Position numbers and translations under genes: made by a program. A stretch of 63,693 bases of DNA, filler included, from Stramenopiles sp. TOSAG23-3 (taxonomy: Eukaryota): assembly GCA_900128585.1 (NCBI GenBank). It is 9 parts of 9 records of this genome, joined end to end, with 100 filler letters (N's around TTAATTAATTAA, not from the genome) between each part and the next. Parts side by side here need not be neighbours in the genome. Positions count along the whole stretch, not along the records: positions 56,738 to 63,693 come from LT643222.1; 8 more parts are not named here. The stretch is one strand, 5' to 3'. Every line of letters starts with the position of its first letter. Within the stretch, counting starts at the first letter, position 1. This document shows positions 52,756 to 63,693 of the stretch, in pieces. A model generated the notes under the pieces. That model made no database searches. It saw only the letters and a program-made list of their open reading frames with translations, and was not told where the DNA came from.

Positions 52756-55700
52756 ATGAGACGAGCGTATGAACAGCGGCGGGTGTCCCTGTCCCTTTTG
52801 TTCCTTATCCTAGTGATTGGTTCGGAATGCATTGCGCTGTCGAGCGCGACGTCCGTGCACAAGACGGGGGCGAAACTTTTTAAGAAAGCGGCGGCGACGG
52901 CGACCGCGAAGGCGAGGGTCCACCTGTCCCGTGGGCACCACGAGGAGAAGGAGGCCGCGAGGCGCGACGACAAGGACGACAAGGACGACAAGGACGACTC
53001 CGATGCGAAAGGCAACTTTCTGCCGAACTACTTGAAAAAGATCAACTGCGACAAGAGCCGCGTTCGCGAGCTGTTCTTTGTGGCCCACAAGAAGGGGATC
53101 AAGCTATCGAAGAACGAAGTCTTGGCGCAGTTCAAGGCCTGCATCAAGGAAAACGCCAAGAAGAAGGTCGTCAACGTGGGTGACAAGAGCACCGCGACGC
53201 AGAACGCGGACCCCACGAAAGAGGAAGAGGACGACTCGCTCATTCGTGAATTTGGGGACAAGTTCCAAACGTGGGACAGCAACAAATGGGTCGAGAAGGA
53301 AGGAAAGTACGCCCGCATCAGCAACAAGACGCTGGAGAAAGGGTACGGAAACTCCCTCGTCTTCGATGGCGACGACAACGGCCGATCGCTGAAAAGCGGC
53401 GGGGTCCGCAAGCTGACCTCCAGGCCGTTCAACATGAAATACGGCGGCGCCATTCGTTTCTCCATCAAAATGGGGTCCGAGAACGGCACCGAATGGTGCA
53501 AGCGTGACGTCAAACGGTTGCAGAAAATGGAGGAAGCGAAGAAGCGCGAGGAGGCCGCCAAGGCCAAGGCCCGCGAGGAGGCGGAGAAGAAAAACCTTCG
53601 CAAAATGATGGAGGCGAAGAAGAAAATGTCCTGCGAGAGTGGCCGCCAGTGCAGCGGGCACGGCGTCGGGATCTACAACGCGACGTGCGATGAGGACTGG
53701 AACTGCAAGGAGCGGACCTGCACCTGCGACTGCAACCCAGGGTACATCGGGGACAAGTGCGAGCAAGCGTACAAGAACTCCCAGTGCCAGAGCGTCGGGG
53801 ACCCGCACCCCCTGACCCTGGACGGGCTCCGTTACAACATCTACGACGCCGGGGAGTTTGTCATGTTCAAGCACCCCAAGGTGCCCGTAGAAATCCACAT
53901 GCTGACGCGCATGGCACACCCGAGAATCGCCGCGACGGCGGCGGTCGCCATGAAGAACCTGAAAACGAACACCGTGTTTACCTTTGAGCAGCCGCACTGC
54001 GGCAACGGCTGGACGCCCCAGTTCCGCGTCGAAAAGGAAGGGAAATGCGTCGACGGCGCTCAGTACGGGCAAAAGTTCGAGCTGGACGGCCTTCGGTACG
54101 ACGGCGGAAAAACCATCCACGGCCCCCTGCACATCAACATCCATGTTGGTGGCTGGTGGCGCTACGGGTGGGCCCAGGGCAGCAAGTGCAGCGGCGCGTC
54201 GTGGCTGAATGCGTACTTCAACGTCCGGGCCCCCCGCGACGGAAAGTCCACTGGGCTCTGCGGCGCGTTCGGAAAGGGCTCTGCGGCGGACGACCGCGAA
54301 CTCGTGCACACGGCGGGCCACCGCCACCACCACCAAATTTCGCGCCACACCCGCGACAAGAACAGCGTCCAGGCCAAAGACTCGTTCTTCAAGTGCGGAT
54401 TCTACAACCCAGGGTTTCGCTACTCGCCATACTTCAAATCGCTGAAGGCCGGGCAGACCTCCCGGGCGGCGATGAAAGCGGCGGCCATGGTCGACGCAGA
54501 GGCAAAGCTAATGCGCGAGCTGGCCGTGGACAAAGCCATCAACGAAGCGAATGACAAAGCGGACGAGAAAAACGAGACGAAGGAGGACGGCGAGAAGTTG
54601 ACCAAGGAGCAGGCGCTGGAAAAGTGCAAGCAGAAGGAAGACATCTCGACGCAGGAGGCGTTGGCCAACTGCGTCAACGACATGATGCTCACGGCGGACC
54701 CGAAGGTCGAGAAGGTCGCCGCGGCCGAGTCCAAAGAGGAGGAAGAAGCGAGCGCGGAGGAAATTGCCGAAAACGAGAAGATGGAGGAGCTGGAAATGGT
54801 CGCCGAGGCTAAGCTGAAGGTGGCCGGGCCGCTGGACCCCGTGCTCCAGTGGTGCGCCGGCAACTGCACCATGGACAAGAGCTGGAAGCAGCTAAAGGCG
54901 TACCCGGAGAAAGTGTACGGCAACTTCCTGTCGAAAGACTTTCGTGAAATGACTGCCCGAATCCCGGACGAGGCCAAGGTCCCCAACCTGCAAATTCGAT
55001 TTTACCAGAAAGACCACGGGTGCCATTGCTGCAACGAGTTCTACGTCGACGACCTTATGGTCGACGGTGGGGGCATGGGCATTAGCATCGTCGCCGACAA
55101 GCGGTTCACCCTGTACGCCGATGGCCACAAAGTCGGTTCCGGCGACTGGTGGGAGCCTGCAAAAGACACCTACCGCTATCGCGCCCGTAAGGACACCAAA
55201 GTTTTTGCGATCGAAGTGAACGGTGGGGAAGATGCCCGCATGGGCGTCATCGCGTCCTTCGGGAAGCACTTGGTCACCTCCTCCGCGTGGAAGTGCACGG
55301 TGGACAAAGTTCCCAACTGGAACCACCCAAAGTTCGACGACGGCGAGTGGCCATCGGCAGTCGAAGAGGGACAGAACGGTATCTTGCCATGGGGCGAGCG
55401 TCCTGGAATCGCCAAGAAAGCTTTCTGGATATTTACCCACGACACCTACAAAATGAAGAGCCAGACCGCGTACTGCCGCGTGAACGTGAAGGCCGCCAGC
55501 CACAGCTCCCACAGCGTGCACCCGGAGGCGACCCGCTGGAGCTGCAAGAGCCAGAAGAACCGCCAGACCCCGAATAGTTTACAGTTGAACGGTGACATGA
55601 TGACCGCTGTCGAGGTGCGAAGCGGCAAAGAGAAGAACGAACATTTCAGCCCAGGAGAATCCTTCACGACCAAGGCAGACGGGAGCGACCAGAGCCGCAT

Positions 55701-56157
55701 CTTGGTCAAGATCAACACCAAACAATTCTTGGACAAGACCGAGGAAGGCGCCATGGTCAAACGTGCAGTCCTCAGGCTCATGACTTTGGACAACACCGAC
55801 GATGAGCTCACCATTTGCCGCCTTATTCGCGAATGGAGCGCGGCAGATGTCACATGGGTCACGCAGCCAGCGTACGACGGGCCAAAAGAAAAATGCATGG
55901 TCGTCAAGGCCAACAAGAAGAACATGTGGTCGGACATCGACATCTCCGACTGGATGCGCGTGTGGATGTCCGAGCCGAAGAAAAACTACGGCATGGTCAT
56001 CGTGCCAAGCGGAAAGGATGCGGCGACGTTCGTATCCCACCTAGACCCGGACGCGAACCAGCGCCCACGTTTGTCTTTGAGTTGCCATGGGGACCGCGCC
56101 GATGCCAACTTGGTGTTCAAGTCCACTAAAGTAGAGTTGAAAAAGAAACAAAAGTAA
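52756..56157 (+). CDS. Secreted mosaic protein: Reelin-like repeat / coiled-coil / EGF / VWD / lectin-like / DNRLRE-like
   Basis: Signal peptide; CSGHG...CDCNPGYIGDKCE (EGF); CQSVGDPHPLTLDG..Y and GLCG (VWD); SLVFDG..RKLTS and QIRFYQ..FYVDDLMV (Reelin-like); VTWVTQP..IDISDW..NYG..RPRL (DNRLRE-like). Confidence 0.75.
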   Translation: MRRAYEQRRVSLSLLFLILVIGSECIALSSATSVHKTGAKLFKKAAATATAKARVHLSRGHHEEKEAARRDDKDDKDDKDDSDAKGNFLPNYLKKINCDKSRVRELFFVAHKKGIKLSKNEVLAQFKACIKENAKKKVVNVGDKSTATQNADPTKEEEDDSLIREFGDKFQTWDSNKWVEKEGKYARISNKTLEKGYGNSLVFDGDDNGRSLKSGGVRKLTSRPFNMKYGGAIRFSIKMGSENGTEWCKRDVKRLQKMEEAKKREEAAKAKAREEAEKKNLRKMMEAKKKMSCESGRQCSGHGVGIYNATCDEDWNCKERTCTCDCNPGYIGDKCEQAYKNSQCQSVGDPHPLTLDGLRYNIYDAGEFVMFKHPKVPVEIHMLTRMAHPRIAATAAVAMKNLKTNTVFTFEQPHCGNGWTPQFRVEKEGKCVDGAQYGQKFELDGLRYDGGKTIHGPLHINIHVGGWWRYGWAQGSKCSGASWLNAYFNVRAPRDGKSTGLCGAFGKGSAADDRELVHTAGHRHHHQISRHTRDKNSVQAKDSFFKCGFYNPGFRYSPYFKSLKAGQTSRAAMKAAAMVDAEAKLMRELAVDKAINEANDKADEKNETKEDGEKLTKEQALEKCKQKEDISTQEALANCVNDMMLTADPKVEKVAAAESKEEEEASAEEIAENEKMEELEMVAEAKLKVAGPLDPVLQWCAGNCTMDKSWKQLKAYPEKVYGNFLSKDFREMTARIPDEAKVPNLQIRFYQKDHGCHCCNEFYVDDLMVDGGGMGISIVADKRFTLYADGHKVGSGDWWEPAKDTYRYRARKDTKVFAIEVNGGEDARMGVIASFGKHLVTSSAWKCTVDKVPNWNHPKFDDGEWPSAVEEGQNGILPWGERPGIAKKAFWIFTHDTYKMKSQTAYCRVNVKAASHSSHSVHPEATRWSCKSQKNRQTPNSLQLNGDMMTAVEVRSGKEKNEHFSPGESFTTKADGSDQSRILVKINTKQFLDKTEEGAMVKRAVLRLMTLDNTDDELTICRLIREWSAADVTWVTQPAYDGPKEKCMVVKANKKNMWSDIDISDWMRVWMSEPKKNYGMVIVPSGKDAATFVSHLDPDANQRPRLSLSCHGDRADANLVFKSTKVELKKKQK

Positions 56158-56737: not shown

Positions 56738-56834
56738 AGCAAAATTGACGATATTGCAATGTGTATTGATTGTTCGAACGTGTCTAACAATATAGTTTGT
56801 CGTGAACGAGGCCAATAAGTTACGACGGCGTAAT
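56738..56834 (+). repeat. Left inverted repeat arm (79 bp perfect to 56816; 97 bp with 3 mismatches)
   Basis: agcaaaattgacgatattgcaat...cgtgaacgaggccaat equals the reverse complement of 63615-63693. Confidence 0.95.
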
Positions 56835-56874
56835 ATAGTTTGTCGTGAACGAGGCCAATAAGTTACGACGGCGT
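56789..56874 (+). repeat. Perfect 43-bp tandem duplication at the inner edge of the left arm
   Basis: aatatagtttgtcgtgaacgaggccaataagttacgacggcgt x2 (56789-56831, 56832-56874). Confidence 0.95.
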
Positions 56875-56940
56875 TCGGCGATATACCTTGGAAGCCCCAT
56901 TGAGCTCTCCACACGCCGAACCGTCCAAAGCTACGGGACA

Positions 56941-59900
56941 ATGGAGCTCGCGGACTATACGTATACATACTTGGAGCAAAGATATGGTGTTGTGATAGCG
57001 TCTAAAATTGAACTATATGTAATCAAAAGCATCAAAGTTCACAGGTTAGTAGATAAAAAGCTAAAATGTAGTTACTGCGCTCATGAAGCCCCATGGGCCC
57101 AAGGCGTCATGCAACGACATGAATCTACGTGTTTGCACAACCCATACAGGAAAATAACAGTCGAAGAAGCATTAATTTGCTTTGTTGAAGAGTATAAGAA
57201 AGTATTCAATGCACCATTAACGATTGAAGAAGTAAAGAAAAAAGCTGATGTTCGATTAGACGCATTTCAAAGATATGTTAACAAAGGTTTACACAAACAC
57301 AATCCATACTTGAAACAAATTGTGTCAATGGTTCGGAAAAACATAGAAGAAAAGGAAGCCTCGCGGCGTCGTGCAAAGAAACATTACCAACAGAAGAAGA
57401 AAGGAGGAAATGGCACTGCAAAATCAGGGAAAATCCCGTTTCAGAATTTCAGGCCAGAAGATACAGCTTCATCTAATATTAAAGGGTTTGTACAAGCGTT
57501 TAAGTGGATAAACAAAAGGGTTGGGAGAAAAAAACAAAGATTTTTGTCGCCCCAAGCAAAACGAAAAAGCAAGGTTTATATTAAACAACAAGCAGCTGCC
57601 AAAAAGGCCGACACATTTGGGTTGCAGCGCCGTTTCTTTTTTTTCTTGAAGAACTATTGTGAACGCAAGAAAATTAACGAAGAATATCTGAATGCTTTAG
57701 AAGCAAAAGCAAATGAACGGTTGATGGCTACAAATCATTCTGTGCCAGGATGGCGACCAGAATGGTCAGATTTAAGCCACAATGCAGATGATGGACATAG
57801 TGGAACACCATCTAATCGTTCGCTTGTAAAAGTGTTGGGGGCCATTGAATATTGTATTCATCTAAGCGGCCTGCCTCAGAATATATTCGCTGCCGTTGAG
57901 CCAGGCAATGGTGTCCTCGACTTCGCAAGAGCAATACACATAGTACTACCAGGTATGCCTATTTTTGGATATGACTGTAAAAACTACTATGCGGGCGTCT
58001 TTTCAGATCTAAATGCAGTAGGCAATGCCATACGACAATTGAAAATTAGAATATCCGCTTATACAAACATTTCCATGAAAGACATCGGAACTTTTGAATA
58101 TACTTATGGCACTATTATTACAGAGCCGGGCACCTTTTCGCGTATCCTTAAGGAAATGGGGGCATCCAGGGAAATTTATCGAAGCAAACATATGATCGTA
58201 TTTTGTTTCTGGGAAGGATGGGGGGACAACGATAAAATTGTTCTATTGAAGGTAATTCGAATGTCAAATGTCAAAATATTTCTCTCCGGAGACCGTGAAG
58301 CGAAATTTTCTAGAGAAAAGAAGCTTGAAATTTTGAACGCCAGATATAAATCTTGGGGATCAAAATTTGTTGTTTTCAAGGAAATGAAGATTAAGCTAGC
58401 CGGAGGTGGTGATTCTATTGACGGAGTTATCTTCATTCGTCGATCACTGCTAAAAACTAGCATTGGAAATTATGCATTAAAACAGGCTATTTGCCCGCCC
58501 CGCCCACCTGCTGACGTGAGTAAATCAAGATGGCTTCAATTATGGCGCCCCTGGAAAAGTAAAGTAAATACAATTGCATTAGAAGCTATGCAATATTACA
58601 TCGTTAATCATGATTGGTTAAGCAGCAATGTACCGACGAGATGGCATGTCATGGCATACACCCATGGCATGAGTAAAGAGTCACTAATTGCGCTAGTCAC
58701 GAAGGCTATAAAGATTTATATGAATAGTAGTATGTTTGTCTCCGGTGGTTATAGAGCGCAACAAATGGTGCTACGATCACAACTTCAAAACTTTTCCGGT
58801 GAACAAAAAAGCGAATTCTTTTGTGATCGGGCTCAATCAAGGATGTTGCTGATCGATGAGAATGATATATGTGATGAGTTTATCTCAAAAATTGAGCTCG
58901 TTGACCAGAATAACCAAAGCAGAGAGGTGATATTAGATCTACTGAATATTTCAACAAGATTTGCGTGTGGCAAATGCGAGTTTACTGGGACGAAAGAAGA
59001 AGTATTTTCGCATTGCGAATTAGCTCCAGACTGTGTGTCTGATTTGGAGGACTTTGTGCCAGTAACTGAAACAATTGACGCCATTGAATTCAATGATGAT
59101 GCTCATCATATTGGAAGAATAAAAGAAATGTTCAAAGACTTTCAGGCCAAGCTTAGTATAGAAGAGCTGAAGGACACTATAGATGAGCGGACAAAAGCAG
59201 ACCTCACGAAAGAACTCATAAGCATTATTGAAGCAAAAATTGAACTTATGAACGAGGAGAATAGAGAGAAGGAGCTTTTAAACCGTTGGCGCGCTCATGT
59301 GACTCTGAAGCAGCAAAACATATTGAGCAAAACGAAAAAGCAGTTGATCCATTGGCACTTTGTTAATAATTCATGGTATGTGCCAATTGGGGACCACACC
59401 TATGAAATTAAAATAGCTCAATTGTCTACATCAACCGATCCAGAGACAGCACGACAGATGTTATTGTCGTCAGGGATAAAGGAATGGGTGACTCAGCTTC
59501 CAGATATTGGAGTTGACAATGCATACGTAAGAGATATTGAAGCAGTGATTAAATATCGCATCAAGATGGTCACACATCATTTTATGAGAAAAAAACGATA
59601 TAAACATGGTGGCAGTTTGTATATTTCTTTGCATGTAGATGGCGCCCCAAGGACGAAACGAGGTTCTCAGCGAGACCAGCTTATTGTTCTCCTGCGAGTC
59701 TTGAATGAAAACCTTACTGCAACTCAATCAATGATGATCCCAATTGTAATTGCAAATGTCGCAGAGGGATCTGAAGAAGCAAGAACATTGTGTGAATTAG
59801 TAGGCAAAGCAATGATAAGGTTCCAAAAAAATGTGGCAAAAAACAAACTTGAAACAATACAAGAAGACGGTCAAGCGGCGTTTCATACAGATGTGCAATA

Positions 59901-61563
59901 TGTTCCAGCATGTGATTTAAAAGCGCTGAATAGTATCTTTGGGTTTGTCGACCATAAGTCGCCCCACTGTTACCCCTCTGCTGTTTTTCTCAGCAAAGAA
60001 AACTCTGGTTATGGCTCTATTGGTCGAAATAGTACCACGCCCATGACAGACTTTCGCACTCGCCAATTAGATATTACTGAGTTTAAAAGAGAGTTTTTTG
60101 CTCGCGCAAAAACAGTGGAGAATCATGAAAAGTCCCGTTTGCAAAATGACCAAAATAAAACAACTGTTGGAAAGCGCCGTAGAAGAAGCAAAGTCAGGGT
60201 AACACAGGTTAGGCCTCTTTATGAAAAAGATATGCCAAAGCCTGTCGTGATGACAGCGGAAATATTAGGTTTTTTGAGAGAAGAAGTTGCAAAAATACCA
60301 ACTGACGAGCGTAGAAAGTTTGCAAAAATCATGGGGATAGGATTATACGATCCATATCCTTTATTTGGCAATGTATTGTGGACGATGATTTCATTGTGTG
60401 CCCTTCACTACAAAACAAATAAAGTTTTGCAGTTATTACAACTTTGCTCTTTAGCTTTAGCGCGATATGATGAAGCAAGGGGACATAAAATATCAGATAG
60501 AAACGAAATAGGAAAATCATTAAAGGCTTTTTTTTGTGGCTTAAAGGGTAACATCTTCAGCAGCAAACTGTTAATATATGCTGACAAGTCAGAACAAATG
60601 TTTCTAAAAACTGCAACAAGAGCAAACTTTGCCGTCTACAGCTCACAGAGACAGTCGTTGGAATCACTGTTGGATAAAGATGACCAAAATCGTCATCGAA
60701 GGCTCATTGGAGATCAAGCAAATATTGTATTGCGGAACATGGAGGAAATATTGAAACTTCTGCAAGTGGGGCGCAAGCAGCATAAAGGTTCATGTGAACG
60801 AGAGTCTGAGGAAGGATTAGTTGTTATCATTTCAGCAATTTACTGCTTAGGGCAATATGTAAAAGATTGCACATATTATATGTCATTATCTAGCCATCCT
60901 GAGAATGAAGCACCTTCTGACACACAGAAACGACTCAATGGCATTGCTAAGAGATACCGGAGGGTGGCGACAAAACTAGAATTTCTTCAAACGTATGTCT
61001 TCCCTGATCTTTTCAAACCTTACGATAACGTTGCGACAAATGTTGGTCCAGATATTATGGATAATTTAATCAAGCATGGATTTCTAATGGGAGAAATAGG
61101 GCTCCTTGAAGTAATGGAATCTTATCACCAGTATGTAAAACAATTACCTGTTTTTCGAATTTTGAAAGCAGGAAAATCAAATTCTAGTGCTTGTGTTGCA
61201 AAACTTTTGAAAATACTTCTCACCCACATCTACGGGGAAACCATAGACCCGCTGCCTTTGAAGAACACAAGGAAACCATACATTCATCACACGAATTTGA
61301 AAACGACGAGAAAATCAAAAGAAAGTTATATCAAAGTGGTACATGAATATGACGGAATTGGGTGTGTTTGTGGGCGTAGCGCAACTTTTAGTGACTGTCA
61401 ATACTGCAATTATGGCCAAATTGAGAAGCTGGATAAGTTGTGTGAAGACAGCTGTGATTACCTACTAGAAGGGAAAGGTGATTTGGACCAGATACTGAAA
61501 GACAAAGAAAAATTAGTAAAGAATGTCTGGATGAAGGGAAATGGAGTTAATGTAAACAAATAG
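56941..61563 (+). CDS. Zn-finger + DOT1-like methyltransferase-like + RAG1/Transib-like DDE transposase fusion protein
   Basis: First ATG at 56941. CSYC..H..C and CGKC..H..C fingers; VEPGNG..IFGYD..VFCFWEG; LHVDG (D at 59638), CDLKAL..IFG (D at 59914), CALH, LIGDQA, EVMESYH (E at 61117); C-terminal CVCG..CQYC. Confidence 0.65.
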   Translation: MELADYTYTYLEQRYGVVIASKIELYVIKSIKVHRLVDKKLKCSYCAHEAPWAQGVMQRHESTCLHNPYRKITVEEALICFVEEYKKVFNAPLTIEEVKKKADVRLDAFQRYVNKGLHKHNPYLKQIVSMVRKNIEEKEASRRRAKKHYQQKKKGGNGTAKSGKIPFQNFRPEDTASSNIKGFVQAFKWINKRVGRKKQRFLSPQAKRKSKVYIKQQAAAKKADTFGLQRRFFFFLKNYCERKKINEEYLNALEAKANERLMATNHSVPGWRPEWSDLSHNADDGHSGTPSNRSLVKVLGAIEYCIHLSGLPQNIFAAVEPGNGVLDFARAIHIVLPGMPIFGYDCKNYYAGVFSDLNAVGNAIRQLKIRISAYTNISMKDIGTFEYTYGTIITEPGTFSRILKEMGASREIYRSKHMIVFCFWEGWGDNDKIVLLKVIRMSNVKIFLSGDREAKFSREKKLEILNARYKSWGSKFVVFKEMKIKLAGGGDSIDGVIFIRRSLLKTSIGNYALKQAICPPRPPADVSKSRWLQLWRPWKSKVNTIALEAMQYYIVNHDWLSSNVPTRWHVMAYTHGMSKESLIALVTKAIKIYMNSSMFVSGGYRAQQMVLRSQLQNFSGEQKSEFFCDRAQSRMLLIDENDICDEFISKIELVDQNNQSREVILDLLNISTRFACGKCEFTGTKEEVFSHCELAPDCVSDLEDFVPVTETIDAIEFNDDAHHIGRIKEMFKDFQAKLSIEELKDTIDERTKADLTKELISIIEAKIELMNEENREKELLNRWRAHVTLKQQNILSKTKKQLIHWHFVNNSWYVPIGDHTYEIKIAQLSTSTDPETARQMLLSSGIKEWVTQLPDIGVDNAYVRDIEAVIKYRIKMVTHHFMRKKRYKHGGSLYISLHVDGAPRTKRGSQRDQLIVLLRVLNENLTATQSMMIPIVIANVAEGSEEARTLCELVGKAMIRFQKNVAKNKLETIQEDGQAAFHTDVQYVPACDLKALNSIFGFVDHKSPHCYPSAVFLSKENSGYGSIGRNSTTPMTDFRTRQLDITEFKREFFARAKTVENHEKSRLQNDQNKTTVGKRRRRSKVRVTQVRPLYEKDMPKPVVMTAEILGFLREEVAKIPTDERRKFAKIMGIGLYDPYPLFGNVLWTMISLCALHYKTNKVLQLLQLCSLALARYDEARGHKISDRNEIGKSLKAFFCGLKGNIFSSKLLIYADKSEQMFLKTATRANFAVYSSQRQSLESLLDKDDQNRHRRLIGDQANIVLRNMEEILKLLQVGRKQHKGSCERESEEGLVVIISAIYCLGQYVKDCTYYMSLSSHPENEAPSDTQKRLNGIAKRYRRVATKLEFLQTYVFPDLFKPYDNVATNVGPDIMDNLIKHGFLMGEIGLLEVMESYHQYVKQLPVFRILKAGKSNSSACVAKLLKILLTHIYGETIDPLPLKNTRKPYIHHTNLKTTRKSKESYIKVVHEYDGIGCVCGRSATFSDCQYCNYGQIEKLDKLCEDSCDYLLEGKGDLDQILKDKEKLVKNVWMKGNGVNVNK

Positions 61564-62032
61564 TATAATACGAAGTATCTTAATATAAAACTTACCTGTC
61601 TTCGACTCGGTCCCGGTGAACTGGCCCCCGACTTCGACTATTCGCAATCGCACTTAGTTAGTTTTTTTTTGTTATTATTCAAAAAATTCAAAATTTATCC
61701 TTAAAAAAGTAAATTAAATTAGCCTCTAATTAATTATGCAGATTCATAATCTGACTTACAGGGTACAGGGTGAAATATAGAAGATAAATAACCAAACGAA
61801 GAAATGTGCTGAAACTATAATGATCAGCCTATAGCATACAGTTAAACCCTACAATCACACCGAATCTCTAATCCCACCCTAATCCCCAACATTTAAGGGA
61901 TTATAAAAAATACTTAGTAAAATTAATTACCATTCATCTCCTGCCTCCCTGGCCCCGGACTTACTACTAAAATTATTTATGATTCCTATTTTTTTATAAA
62001 AGATCTTACAGTATATTTATCCAGTAAAAGTA

Positions 62033-62175
62033 ACAACGGCAGCCCCAACAACGGCACCAACTGCAGCCCCAACAGCCAGCCCTACCGCTGCCCCAACGAC
62101 GGCACCAACCGCAGCCCCAACAGCCGGCCCCACCGCTGCCCCGACGACGGCACCAACCGCAGTGCCAACGGCGGC
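62033..62175. repeat. 12-bp-period GC-rich repeat (PTAA on the + strand, GAAV on the - strand)
   Basis: Reads TTAAPTTAPTAAPTASPTAAPTTAPTAAPTAGPTAAPTTAPTAVPTAA; variation is mostly at wobble positions. Confidence 0.85.
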
Positions 62176-62182
62176 TCTGCCC

Positions 62183-63616
62183 TTATATAAAACTTACCTG
62201 TTGCCAATCACTCAACTCTTTATCTACTTTTAACTTACCATGTGTCTTGCGGTACGACTTAAATTTAACTTCGACTAACATCTCAAGTGAATGTGCCTTC
62301 TCCTTAAGCAGAATTCGTGCATGTGTTAGACGCTTGTAGAAGTTGAGAAAGTTTATTTTGAAAAGATATTCGATTATTGATGATGCAAGAAACTTTACGC
62401 TGATTTTCCTCCAGCATTCCAGCACCTCCAGAGAAATTCGCTGCTCACGTGGAATTTCTCCTCTCAAAATTATCTCTTTCGAACCAACTAAGTCATATAA
62501 ATCATCTTTGCACATATGTCCAACGCTGACTTTGTCCGTCTCAAAATTAATATATGACCCGAAGTTTGTAACACATTTTATTTTCTCTGAAATGGGCTTC
62601 TGAAACATTTCTAGAAACGCGCTCAAAGGTATGCACTCATTTGATTCAAAAGTAATACCCGTCATGCATAGCAGGCTATGAAACGGCTTTGGGTACTCCC
62701 GTAATACTTTTTCAACTTTATGCTCCCTAATGTTCCTATTATTAGGCGTTTGTTTTCCTAAGCACAATGAAAACCATCTGATTAAATCTTCTTCAACAAT
62801 AGATCGTAGTAACTGTACCATTGATGTATTTTCAGTTTTAGCACAAATGCGTTCTTCAAGAATATCAAGTCTTGACGCCGCACTATCAAGTAAGCAATTG
62901 GTGCTGTTGACATCCAGTTGCAGTTGATGCTGGTGTCGTTTGATGTCTTCACCTGATAATGATAGCTTCGCTACCCCTTTGAGCAATGCGTTTAATTTTT
63001 TATTTGTAATCCCGGCCATTTTATTCTGAGCATTTGCAGATTTGTTACGTATTGTCGAATCTATGAGCTGCCTTTGAATTTTGTTGAAAGACACTTCAAA
63101 TTCTTTTAACAACTTATCCTTTGCAACGATTGCCATTTCCTTCTGTGAAACCATTGCTTGGAATTTACTAATTTCTGCTCTCACAAGACTAAGCTCGGCT
63201 TTAAGTCTTTTCGTCTGAAGTTCTTCCTCCTGCTCTCTGTCTTTTTGTCTTTGAAGTTCCCTTAGAATTTTTCTCTGTGCCTCTACAAGACAAGCAGTGC
63301 ACTGGTCTTGGCCTTCCTTTGGCCGGTATACTTTGCCACACTCACATCTAACTGCAACCACCTTGAAGTCAGTTCCAACACGTGGGTTTAGCATCCGCCG
63401 TTCAATTTCATCGAATGCATACTCATTAGGATATACACTAAGATGGAAAAATATCCTTTTGCCCCTCTTTCGCACTAACATTCCATCCCCGGCATATTTC
63501 TTGCTTTGATTCCATTCATAGCAACTGCCAGCACGCCAGGGCTTCCAAGGTATCTCGTCAATGTTCACTCTGGCAGCATATTCTTTGCCGCAAGTGATTA
63601 CCCCGTTGTAACTCAT
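62183..63616 (-). CDS. Transposon-associated hypothetical protein (Zn-ribbon + long coiled-coil), possibly spliced at the 3' end
   Basis: 477-aa ORF; CECG..CTAC; ~150-aa coiled-coil; ATG lies within the right inverted repeat; CAG|GTAAGT donor-like site four codons before the stop. Confidence 0.65.
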   Translation of the reverse strand: MSYNGVITCGKEYAARVNIDEIPWKPWRAGSCYEWNQSKKYAGDGMLVRKRGKRIFFHLSVYPNEYAFDEIERRMLNPRVGTDFKVVAVRCECGKVYRPKEGQDQCTACLVEAQRKILRELQRQKDREQEEELQTKRLKAELSLVRAEISKFQAMVSQKEMAIVAKDKLLKEFEVSFNKIQRQLIDSTIRNKSANAQNKMAGITNKKLNALLKGVAKLSLSGEDIKRHQHQLQLDVNSTNCLLDSAASRLDILEERICAKTENTSMVQLLRSIVEEDLIRWFSLCLGKQTPNNRNIREHKVEKVLREYPKPFHSLLCMTGITFESNECIPLSAFLEMFQKPISEKIKCVTNFGSYINFETDKVSVGHMCKDDLYDLVGSKEIILRGEIPREQRISLEVLECWRKISVKFLASSIIEYLFKINFLNFYKRLTHARILLKEKAHSLEMLVEVKFKSYRKTHGKLKVDKELSDWQQVSFI

Positions 63617-63693
63617 TGGCCTCGTTCACGACAAACTATATTGTTAGACACGTTCGAACAATCAATACACATTGCAATATCGTCAATTTTGCT
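63597..63693 (-). repeat. Right inverted repeat arm
   Basis: Reverse complement matches 56738-56834 with 3 mismatches in the inner 18 bp. Confidence 0.95.

Follow-up and report, generated by a model that had tools for sequence, protein, structure and literature searches.

Can a DNA transposon of a protist carry a methyltransferase inside its own transposase? The question is raised by the last of nine contigs in a 63,693-nucleotide stretch of DNA (hereafter the window) from Stramenopiles sp. TOSAG23-3 (assembly GCA_900128585.1), an apparent mobile element (record LT643222.1, positions 56738–63693) in whose long open reading frame, ORF1, an earlier note made from the letters of the DNA had placed a DOT1-like class I methyltransferase domain, at 57790–58445. 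Positions throughout are those of the whole window, and ORF1 residues are numbered from 56845. We find that ORF1 joins a predicted RAG1/Transib-like transposase core to a predicted domain of the fold shared by class I S-adenosylmethionine (SAM) methyltransferases, and we put at roughly 0.55 the probability that this domain binds SAM and is catalytically active, likely as an N-methyltransferase.

The features on which this reading turns are given below, motif counts for the domain being taken from an alignment of 12 rows (the query and 11 homologues):

56941–61563 (+): ORF1, the transposase, from its first ATG; the open frame itself starts at 56845 and has 1572 codons
57742–58449 (+): predicted class I (seven-beta-strand) methyltransferase-fold domain, residues 300–535, from AlphaFold2, Foldseek, VIA and a domain hidden Markov model (HMM)
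57898–57912 (+): motif I (E352-P-G354-N-G356), on the loop that follows strand 1; all 12 rows have the acid, and 11 of 12 have each glycine
57961–57975 (+): strand 2, IFGYD, ending in D377; 11 of 12 rows have D or E there
58207–58221 (+): loop after strand 4, F455-W-E457-G-W459, at the motif IV position; E457 in all 8 rows that cover it

ORF1 is an uninterrupted frame of 1572 amino acids, with no internal stop and no need of introns; homologues begin to align near its first ATG (56941), and those with 43–45% identity align over nearly its full length. The plus-strand interval 57790–58445 translates without a stop into 218 residues, ORF1 residues 316–533, which contain all four strings quoted in the earlier note (SGTPSNRSLVKVLGAI, NIFAAVEPGNGVLDFARAIHIVLPGMPIFGYD, HMIVFCFWEGW and KIKLAGGGDSIDGVIFIR); the full domain, at about residues 300–535, is slightly wider. 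For AlphaFold2 we supplied residues 286–585 aligned with the 11 homologues, and obtained a model with a mean predicted local distance difference test score (pLDDT) of 80.5 and a predicted template modelling score (pTM) of 0.76. In this model a helix (324–341) precedes strand 1 (348–353, FAAVEP), followed by helix A, strand 2 (373–377, IFGYD), helix B, strand 3 (417–421), helix C, strand 4 (449–455, HMIVFCF), helix D, strand 5 (476–483), helix E and a hairpin of strands 6 (508–518) and 7 (524–532). The succession b1-aA-b2-aB-b3-aC-b4-aD-b5-aE-b6-b7, closed by a terminal hairpin, is that of class I methyltransferases and agrees element by element with what the earlier note had assigned: the pre-motif helix, strands 1, 2 and 4, and the hairpin.

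Structural comparison of the model points the same way. Against the PDB, Foldseek found 500 or more matches with E ≤ 1e-3; those listed (ranks 1–49) are without exception methyltransferase-fold proteins, with RsmG and human DOT1L joint first among them at E 2.2e-6. VIA-align was run twice, on the top 1000 Foldseek chains and, independently, on 48,161 representative chains, rows no more than 1 Z apart being counted as tied. Among the former, 953 of 1000 chains reach Z ≥ 8, led by 9ne1 (Z 13.9, root-mean-square deviation (rmsd) 3.5, 185 residues aligned), Caenorhabditis elegans METT-10 (13.7), Trypanosoma brucei DOT1A (13.4), RsmD (13.3) and DOT1L (12.9), and the longest alignments, of 207–209 residues, are to DOT1L. 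Among the latter there are 407 with Z ≥ 8, nearly all of the top 50 being methyltransferases; 9ne1 is again first (Z 13.8, 181 of 203 residues), with an RsmD-like chain next at 12.6. Further VIA scores include 12.5 for Trm14 and 12.0 for TrmN, and sequence identity in the structural alignments to DOT1 entries is 8–15%. At the level of the predicted structure, we regard it as established that the domain has the class I seven-beta-strand, Rossmann-type fold of SAM methyltransferases.

Class I enzymes hold SAM and substrate in the loops after strands 1, 2 and 4. In the ORF1 family the motif I acid is E in 11 rows and D in one; the acid ending strand 2, which occupies the ribose-binding position of class I enzymes, is missing from a single row, a degenerate 175-residue fragment; and the loop after strand 4 follows the pattern F-[WC]-E-[GS]-[WF]. 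These pocket residues are kept even in P0011 and P0012, family members with only 21–22% identity to the query. Pairwise identity among the four close homologues is 45–52% in the domain, 48–54% in the core, 29–41% in the linker and 15–32% in the N-terminus; judged by these values, the domain is as conserved as the catalytic core.

The family itself is sparse in databases. A word-indexed protein search gave three matches among 5.8 billion clustered proteins, and a full phmmer scan of 1.84 billion representative proteins gave 28 with E ≤ 1e-3, 12 of them with E ≤ 1e-30, many being fragments and all being family members. They come from JGI, ENA, Logan and EukProt and lie on contigs of 4.6–7.9 kb; the diverged family fragments show 37–69% identity. 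The domain HMM matches all seven distinct full-length proteins, six of which had helped to build it, so that the independent evidence is the alignment of the full-length members themselves, which carry the domain down to 21–29% identity. The fusion thus recurs elsewhere, and with a methyltransferase fold predicted and its motifs kept in homologous elements, the motif-level account of the earlier note has held up. One homologue, P0010 (805 residues), has no such domain and aligns only from its own residue 99, to ORF1 residue 780; it may be a truncated gene model, and we do not count it as a domain-less member. Because every full-length member has the domain, and because it is conserved as much as the catalytic core, these alignments argue for a fixed internal module of a 1572-residue DDE transposase and against a recent capture.

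Another homologue, P0003 (1989 residues), has within its residues 1–720, upstream of the transposase, a thioredoxin domain (E 7e-28) and a Ulp1/C48 protease fragment that falls below threshold (E 6e-4, with 20.2 bits where the cutoff is 20.7); the gene model is probably chimeric. Ulp1-like proteases travel with some transposons.

What kind of transposase, then, harbours this domain? The features that bear on it are:

59422–61269 (+): predicted RAG1/Transib-fold DDE transposase core, residues 860–1475, from a structural model, Foldseek and VIA
59638–59640 (+): D932 (in HVDGAPR), candidate first catalytic aspartate, on the long first strand of the core; 11 of 11 rows
59914–59916 (+): D1024 (in ACDLKALN), candidate second catalytic aspartate; 11 of 11 rows
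61117–61119 (+): E1425 (in LLEVMESYH), candidate third catalytic residue; 15 of 15 rows

A model of residues 860–1480, built with 15 homologues, has a pLDDT of 78.8 and a pTM of 0.79. All 47 of its Foldseek matches with E ≤ 1e-3 are RAG1, amphioxus RAGL (BbRAGL) or Helicoverpa Transib (HzTransib), the best being RAG1 (6cg0, E 3.8e-10), and the first unrelated match appears at E 0.056. VIA aligns the model to RAG1 with Z 20.4 (441 residues, rmsd 3.8, RAG1 residues 467–1007), followed by HzTransib (17.8), BbRAGL (17.6), the P element (11.0), ISCth4 (8.2) and Hermes (6.3). By its predicted structure the core, at about residues 860–1475, belongs to the RAG1/Transib structural class, RNase H-like with a large helical insertion. 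Within it, from where the residues sit in the model and along the RAG1 alignment, we infer a catalytic triad of D932, D1024 and E1425, the last chosen for a fitting distance to the C-terminal end of that alignment; D1209 (13 of 13 rows) is an alternative third residue. Other acids kept across the family are E974 (11 of 11) and D1394 (15 of 16), and the family-wide cysteines and histidines are C1185 and H1188 (13 of 13 each), which make up a C1185-x2-H1188 motif, and H1428 (15 of 15); H1037-x4-C1042 is found in close members only.

A 2025 paper (PMC12730594) unites under the name 'CMCT' a clade of EnSpm/CACTA, Mirage, Chapaev, Transib, Plavaka, ESTA, Lanisha and RAG1; the canonical C/H motifs of this clade, as defined there, are absent from the ORF1 family alignment. 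Of this clade only RAG1, RAGL and Transib turned up in the fold searches, which do not separate Transib from the other CMCT lineages; we therefore give the structural class and leave the superfamily unnamed, CACTA-type lineages, which lie within the same clade, being possible. Pfam contains no RAG1 or Transposase_21 match for ORF1 or the 12 family members, and its noise-level rows are DUF3905 for ORF1 (E 0.16, unrelated and sub-threshold) and DUF4218 for one member (E 0.23). A KDZ or CACTA affiliation had been suspected from motifs (DGAP, D-KA-N, CALHYKT) and found no support from models, the fold search leading instead to the RAG1/Transib class; the Pfam KDZ transposase and CxC models match neither ORF1 nor any of the 12 members at E ≤ 10. 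The KDZ context implied by the earlier note is not supported.

That the frame belongs to a mobile element is argued by the ends of its contig:

7063, 14166, 21266, 28365, 35457, 42543, 49623 and 56682: linkers between the pieces of the window
56738–63693 (no strand): whole element as assembled, one contig of 6956 base pairs with an inverted repeat at both ends
56738–56834 (+): left terminal inverted repeat arm, 97 nucleotides; weaker likeness runs on to about 56897
63597–63693 (−): right terminal inverted repeat arm, 97 nucleotides; holds the ATG of ORF2 at 63616
56789–56874 (+): 43-nucleotide unit, repeated exactly in tandem (two copies) in the left arm and single in the right, at 63600–63642

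Positions 1–63693 comprise nine separate contigs sorted by size (7018, 7003, 7000, 6999, 6992, 6986, 6980, 6959 and 6956 nucleotides), joined by N44-TTAATTAATTAA-N44 linkers, so that adjoining pieces are not genomic neighbours; the last piece fits the steady fall in sizes and is for that reason probably complete. Its two arms are 97% complementary over 97 nucleotides, with extra repeat pairs lengthening the similarity, and since its first and last 97 bases are mutual inverted repeats, the 6956-base-pair sequence appears to be one complete contig and in essence a single mobile element. RAG1/Transib-type elements of the CMCT clade are characterised by 5'-CA..TG-3' termini and target-site duplications of 2–5 bp. 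Here the contig starts AGCAAAATTG and ends CAATTTTGCT, with CA and TG each two nucleotides inside the terminus; it stops within the repeats, and a target-site duplication is unreadable. Core fold and repeats agree with the earlier claim of a domain fused inside a transposase, encoded here on an element with terminal inverted repeats. The copies of the 43-nucleotide unit may serve the transposase as subterminal binding sites, or may have arisen by a recent duplication.

DNA almost identical to the element is present in marine metagenomes. Among 21 marine metagenome runs listed, from nine studies, 20 hold part of this sequence, two of them probably being the source sample. Of the sampled words, 0.89 and 0.78 are present in two of the runs, most contigs being at least 99% alike, and in each of these two one contig runs past the contig end, by 158 and 313 nucleotides, from which it follows that true termini or flanks exist. 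Scans of metagenome and viral contigs found word matches in 220 and 61 stretches, respectively, none of which codes for a relative. The metagenome copies differ from ORF1 at 13 bases, five synonymous and eight non-synonymous, too few for a test of selection. Two metatranscriptome runs contribute 11 short records, ten of which (150–240 nucleotides, at least 99% alike) map to portions of ORF1, of the spacer and of ORF2, and the eleventh of which, a 4585-nucleotide contig touching only 19–27 nucleotides, we count as spurious; none of the 11 covers the methyltransferase segment. DNA carry-over is possible in such runs, and we therefore claim no expression.

At 61724–61803, several contigs from two metagenome runs break or diverge (loose ends at 61724, 61792 and 61803), and the summed depth climbs to 5–10, from about 2.9 elsewhere. 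Either a structural variant of the spacer or a short sequence that recurs at other loci is suggested by this.

How far does the evidence carry from fold to function? Several observations weigh against an active enzyme, or against a DOT1 affinity for it. At E ≤ 10 no Pfam methyltransferase model matches ORF1, the segment or any of 12 family members, the DOT1 model included (0 of 12 members, and likewise neither ORF1 nor the segment), and a search of PDB sequences with the single-domain query and the family profile (E ≤ 10) gives no methyltransferase; the ESM Atlas has no usable match for the domain, and Pfam over ORF1, the segment, ten homologues and the 12 alignment members finds neither a methyltransferase nor a transposase family. 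Motif I lacks the third glycine of GxGxG, reading GxGVL in its place with V, L, N or T at that position, and the position following strand 3, where many class I enzymes use an acid for adenine, is G or N. According to the LpDot1 preprint, SAM binding requires DxGxGxG. A conserved W-x3-W / DG-x2-G[ST] stretch upstream is modelled with a pLDDT below 50, which leaves a DOT1-like lid without support, and the domain model was itself built on only 12 sequences. In the metagenome copies the domain portion has four non-synonymous and three synonymous changes; one of the changes, V452A (58199), alters a residue invariant in the four close homologues, as does G1164A (60335) elsewhere in ORF1, and such changes hint that present-day copies may be drifting. 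As for the label, the earlier 'DOT1-like' is partly supported: LpDot1 (9ne1) tops both VIA lists, making this the best single description of the modelled domain; the margin of 9ne1 is 0.2 Z over METT-10 in one list and 1.2 Z over the RsmD-like chain in the other, and because rows within 1 Z are ties, the ranking does not part DOT1 from RNA or small-molecule methyltransferases.

Much of this would also be expected of a catalytically dead methyltransferase fold kept as a module, whether for dimerisation or synapsis, for binding ends or nucleosomes, or as a sensor of SAM and S-adenosylhomocysteine that gates transposition. We consider this the main rival, possible if on balance doubtful. Motif I without its third glycine, strand 3 without a following acid and the failure of every family member to match any methyltransferase HMM all suit it, as does the place of the domain, which lies N-terminal to the region alignable with RAG1 (an alignment that starts at about residue 467), the side on which the DNA-binding modules of RAG1 also lie; strong conservation, for its part, suits any essential role, catalytic or other. 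It accounts less well for where that conservation falls, since the residues invariant out to 21% identity sit on the loops after strands 1, 2 and 4, the cofactor and substrate site, and an invariant acid between aromatics after strand 4 (8 of 8 rows) is ill explained by a pure scaffold. An active domain, the reading we prefer, would hold SAM through E352, G354 and G356 after strand 1 and through D377 at the end of strand 2, while the invariant F-W-E457-G-W loop that follows strand 4 would position a nitrogen nucleophile to receive the methyl group; speculatively, transposition might thereby be coupled to marks placed on chromatin or on nucleic acid, either at the element or at the target. Evasion of silencing and selection of targets, roles that the earlier note put forward, are conjecture, as is the methylation of histones or nucleic acids. 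That the nitrogen belongs to a protein lysine, DOT1-style, in a chromatin protein, a host factor or the transposase itself, is a tentative proposal and rather more likely wrong than right. Unlikely, too, is that it belongs to a nucleic-acid base, the domain marking element DNA or RNA, or target DNA, in the manner of METTL16, RsmD or Trm14. The scores of METT-10 (13.7), RsmD (13.3), Trm14 (12.5) and TrmN (12.0), tied with or close to those of the DOT1 entries, favour such an activity, and the F-W-E-G-W loop is akin in logic to (D/N)PP(Y/F/W), the motif of amino-methyltransferases, in setting an acid or amide beside an aromatic. The PP of that motif is missing, however, the top chain of both VIA lists is a DOT1 enzyme and the DOT1L alignments are the longest, and no nucleic-acid-binding appendage was identified in the protein.

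The remaining alternative takes the gene out of any mobile element: a host gene that has been domesticated, or a chimera of the assembly, with a host enzyme of methyltransferase fold joined to it by chance. We hold this to be very improbable. Its attractions are that the sequence occurs as a single copy within the window, that a homologous gene model, P0003, is clearly chimeric, with thioredoxin upstream, and that contig ends lying inside repeats make target-site duplications invisible. Yet both ends of the contig form the 97-nucleotide, 97% inverted repeat; the same architecture is present in seven distinct full-length proteins of different sources; metagenome contigs cross the junctions between domain and flank unbroken, one of them spanning 56845–58504; and the diverged fragments, at 37–69% identity, point to several lineages. 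The boldest reading would describe an autonomous, recently active lineage of the RAG1/Transib clade in marine protists, whose transposase bears a working DOT1-type lysine methyltransferase that marks nucleosomes, or else a protein of the host or the transposase, where the element leaves or inserts and so ties cutting and joining to chromatin state; taken whole, this picture is decidedly unlikely to be right in every part. It would be an independently reached answer to a problem that RAG solves by means of the RING domain of RAG1 and the PHD finger of RAG2.

The element has further features outside the two folded domains:

58966–59034 (+): Cys/His cluster C708-x2-C711...H723...C730, in the linker between both folded domains; invariant in four close homologues
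61363–61407 (+): C-terminal Cys cluster CxC-x8-C-x2-C, invariant in four close homologues and visible in P0011 and P0012 too
62183–63616 (−): ORF2, 477 amino acids, convergent with ORF1, its ATG within the right repeat

The first of these clusters is a possible zinc finger. ORF2 is rich in Cys at its N-terminus and continues as a long coiled coil; it has one homologue (40% identity over 100% of its span), besides an exact ORF2 copy elsewhere, and no Pfam or ESM Atlas match, hence no known family. It may be an accessory factor. Just past its stop, in the spacer between the two frames, lies a GC-rich repeat with a 12-nucleotide period (62021–62175, about seven overlapping copies of 70 nucleotides), the rest of the element being AT-rich. 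The eukaryotic genes on the other pieces of the window are of ordinary kinds and have long frames without interruption; they encode a cGMP-type kinase with WW domains, a P-type ATPase, an EF-hand protein and a Patched-like protein. On the neighbouring contig, 52756–56157 (+) encodes a secreted-looking protein of 1133 amino acids, intron-free, with CBM96 and reelin-subrepeat matches and an EGF-like pattern of cysteines; the GC fraction of this gene is 0.59 against 0.38 for the element, and the other pieces are likewise long and intron-free, with a GC content far above that of the element. The host is an intron-poor marine eukaryote.

How does the element compare with known systems? The modelled domain resembles the DOT1 family (LpDot1, 9ne1; T. 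brucei DOT1A, 8fjm and 8fjn; human DOT1L) in its class I fold, with DOT1 entries at the top of both VIA lists, in the acid before two motif I glycines and in the acid that ends strand 2. It departs from that family in its ExGxGVL, against the DxGxGxG given for DOT1 in the LpDot1 preprint, in having no Pfam DOT1 match and in being embedded in a transposase. LpDot1, the protein of entry 9NE1, is described in that source as a bacterial minimal DOT1 domain that is active and methylates non-histone proteins. With RAG1, Transib and RAGL the element shares the whole 620-residue core, which superposes in the model, and the conserved candidate D, D and E. It resembles RAG1/RAG2 loci, which hold convergent genes, in its convergent second frame. 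It differs from RAG1 and Transib in that ORF1 has no Pfam transposase match and has an added methyltransferase-fold domain, and from RAG2 in that ORF2 has no kelch or RAG2 signature.

Cytosine methyltransferases occur in retrotransposons. In SETMAR (Metnase), according to the abstract of PMC2847698, a methyltransferase is linked to a DNA transposase, and Phytophthora HarbingerS and MuDR transposons carry SET-domain genes, according to PMC12730594. These use the SET fold, not class I, with transposases of other superfamilies, and SETMAR, in which a primate host gene is fused to a mariner transposase, is not an ancestral feature of a transposon family. PMC12730594 also places TET/JBP dioxygenases in fungal KDZ, Plavaka, ESTA, EnSpm and Helitron lineages, some of them in the CMCT clade. 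Such elements likewise encode an enzyme able to rewrite epigenetic marks; there, however, the dioxygenase is on a separate gene, whereas here the methyltransferase fold lies within the transposase polypeptide and no KDZ signature is present. A fusion of a class I methyltransferase fold to a RAG1-like transposase was not found in the full-text literature searched, which leaves out most subscription journals and Repbase Reports.

Transposons with chromatin or DNA modifiers (SET, TET/JBP) are thus already known, and none of them combines this fold with this class of transposase. A motif-level reading held where Pfam, the PDB sequence search and a protein-language atlas gave nothing. If the domain is active, one polypeptide and one element of about 7 kb would offer a place to study cut-and-paste transposition of RAG1 architecture coupled to methylation. 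Whatever the role of the domain, a divergent protist lineage, invisible to sequence models, joins the RAG1/Transib structural class on the evidence of its predicted core; this added lineage bears on the spread and age of the RAG1/Transib architecture.

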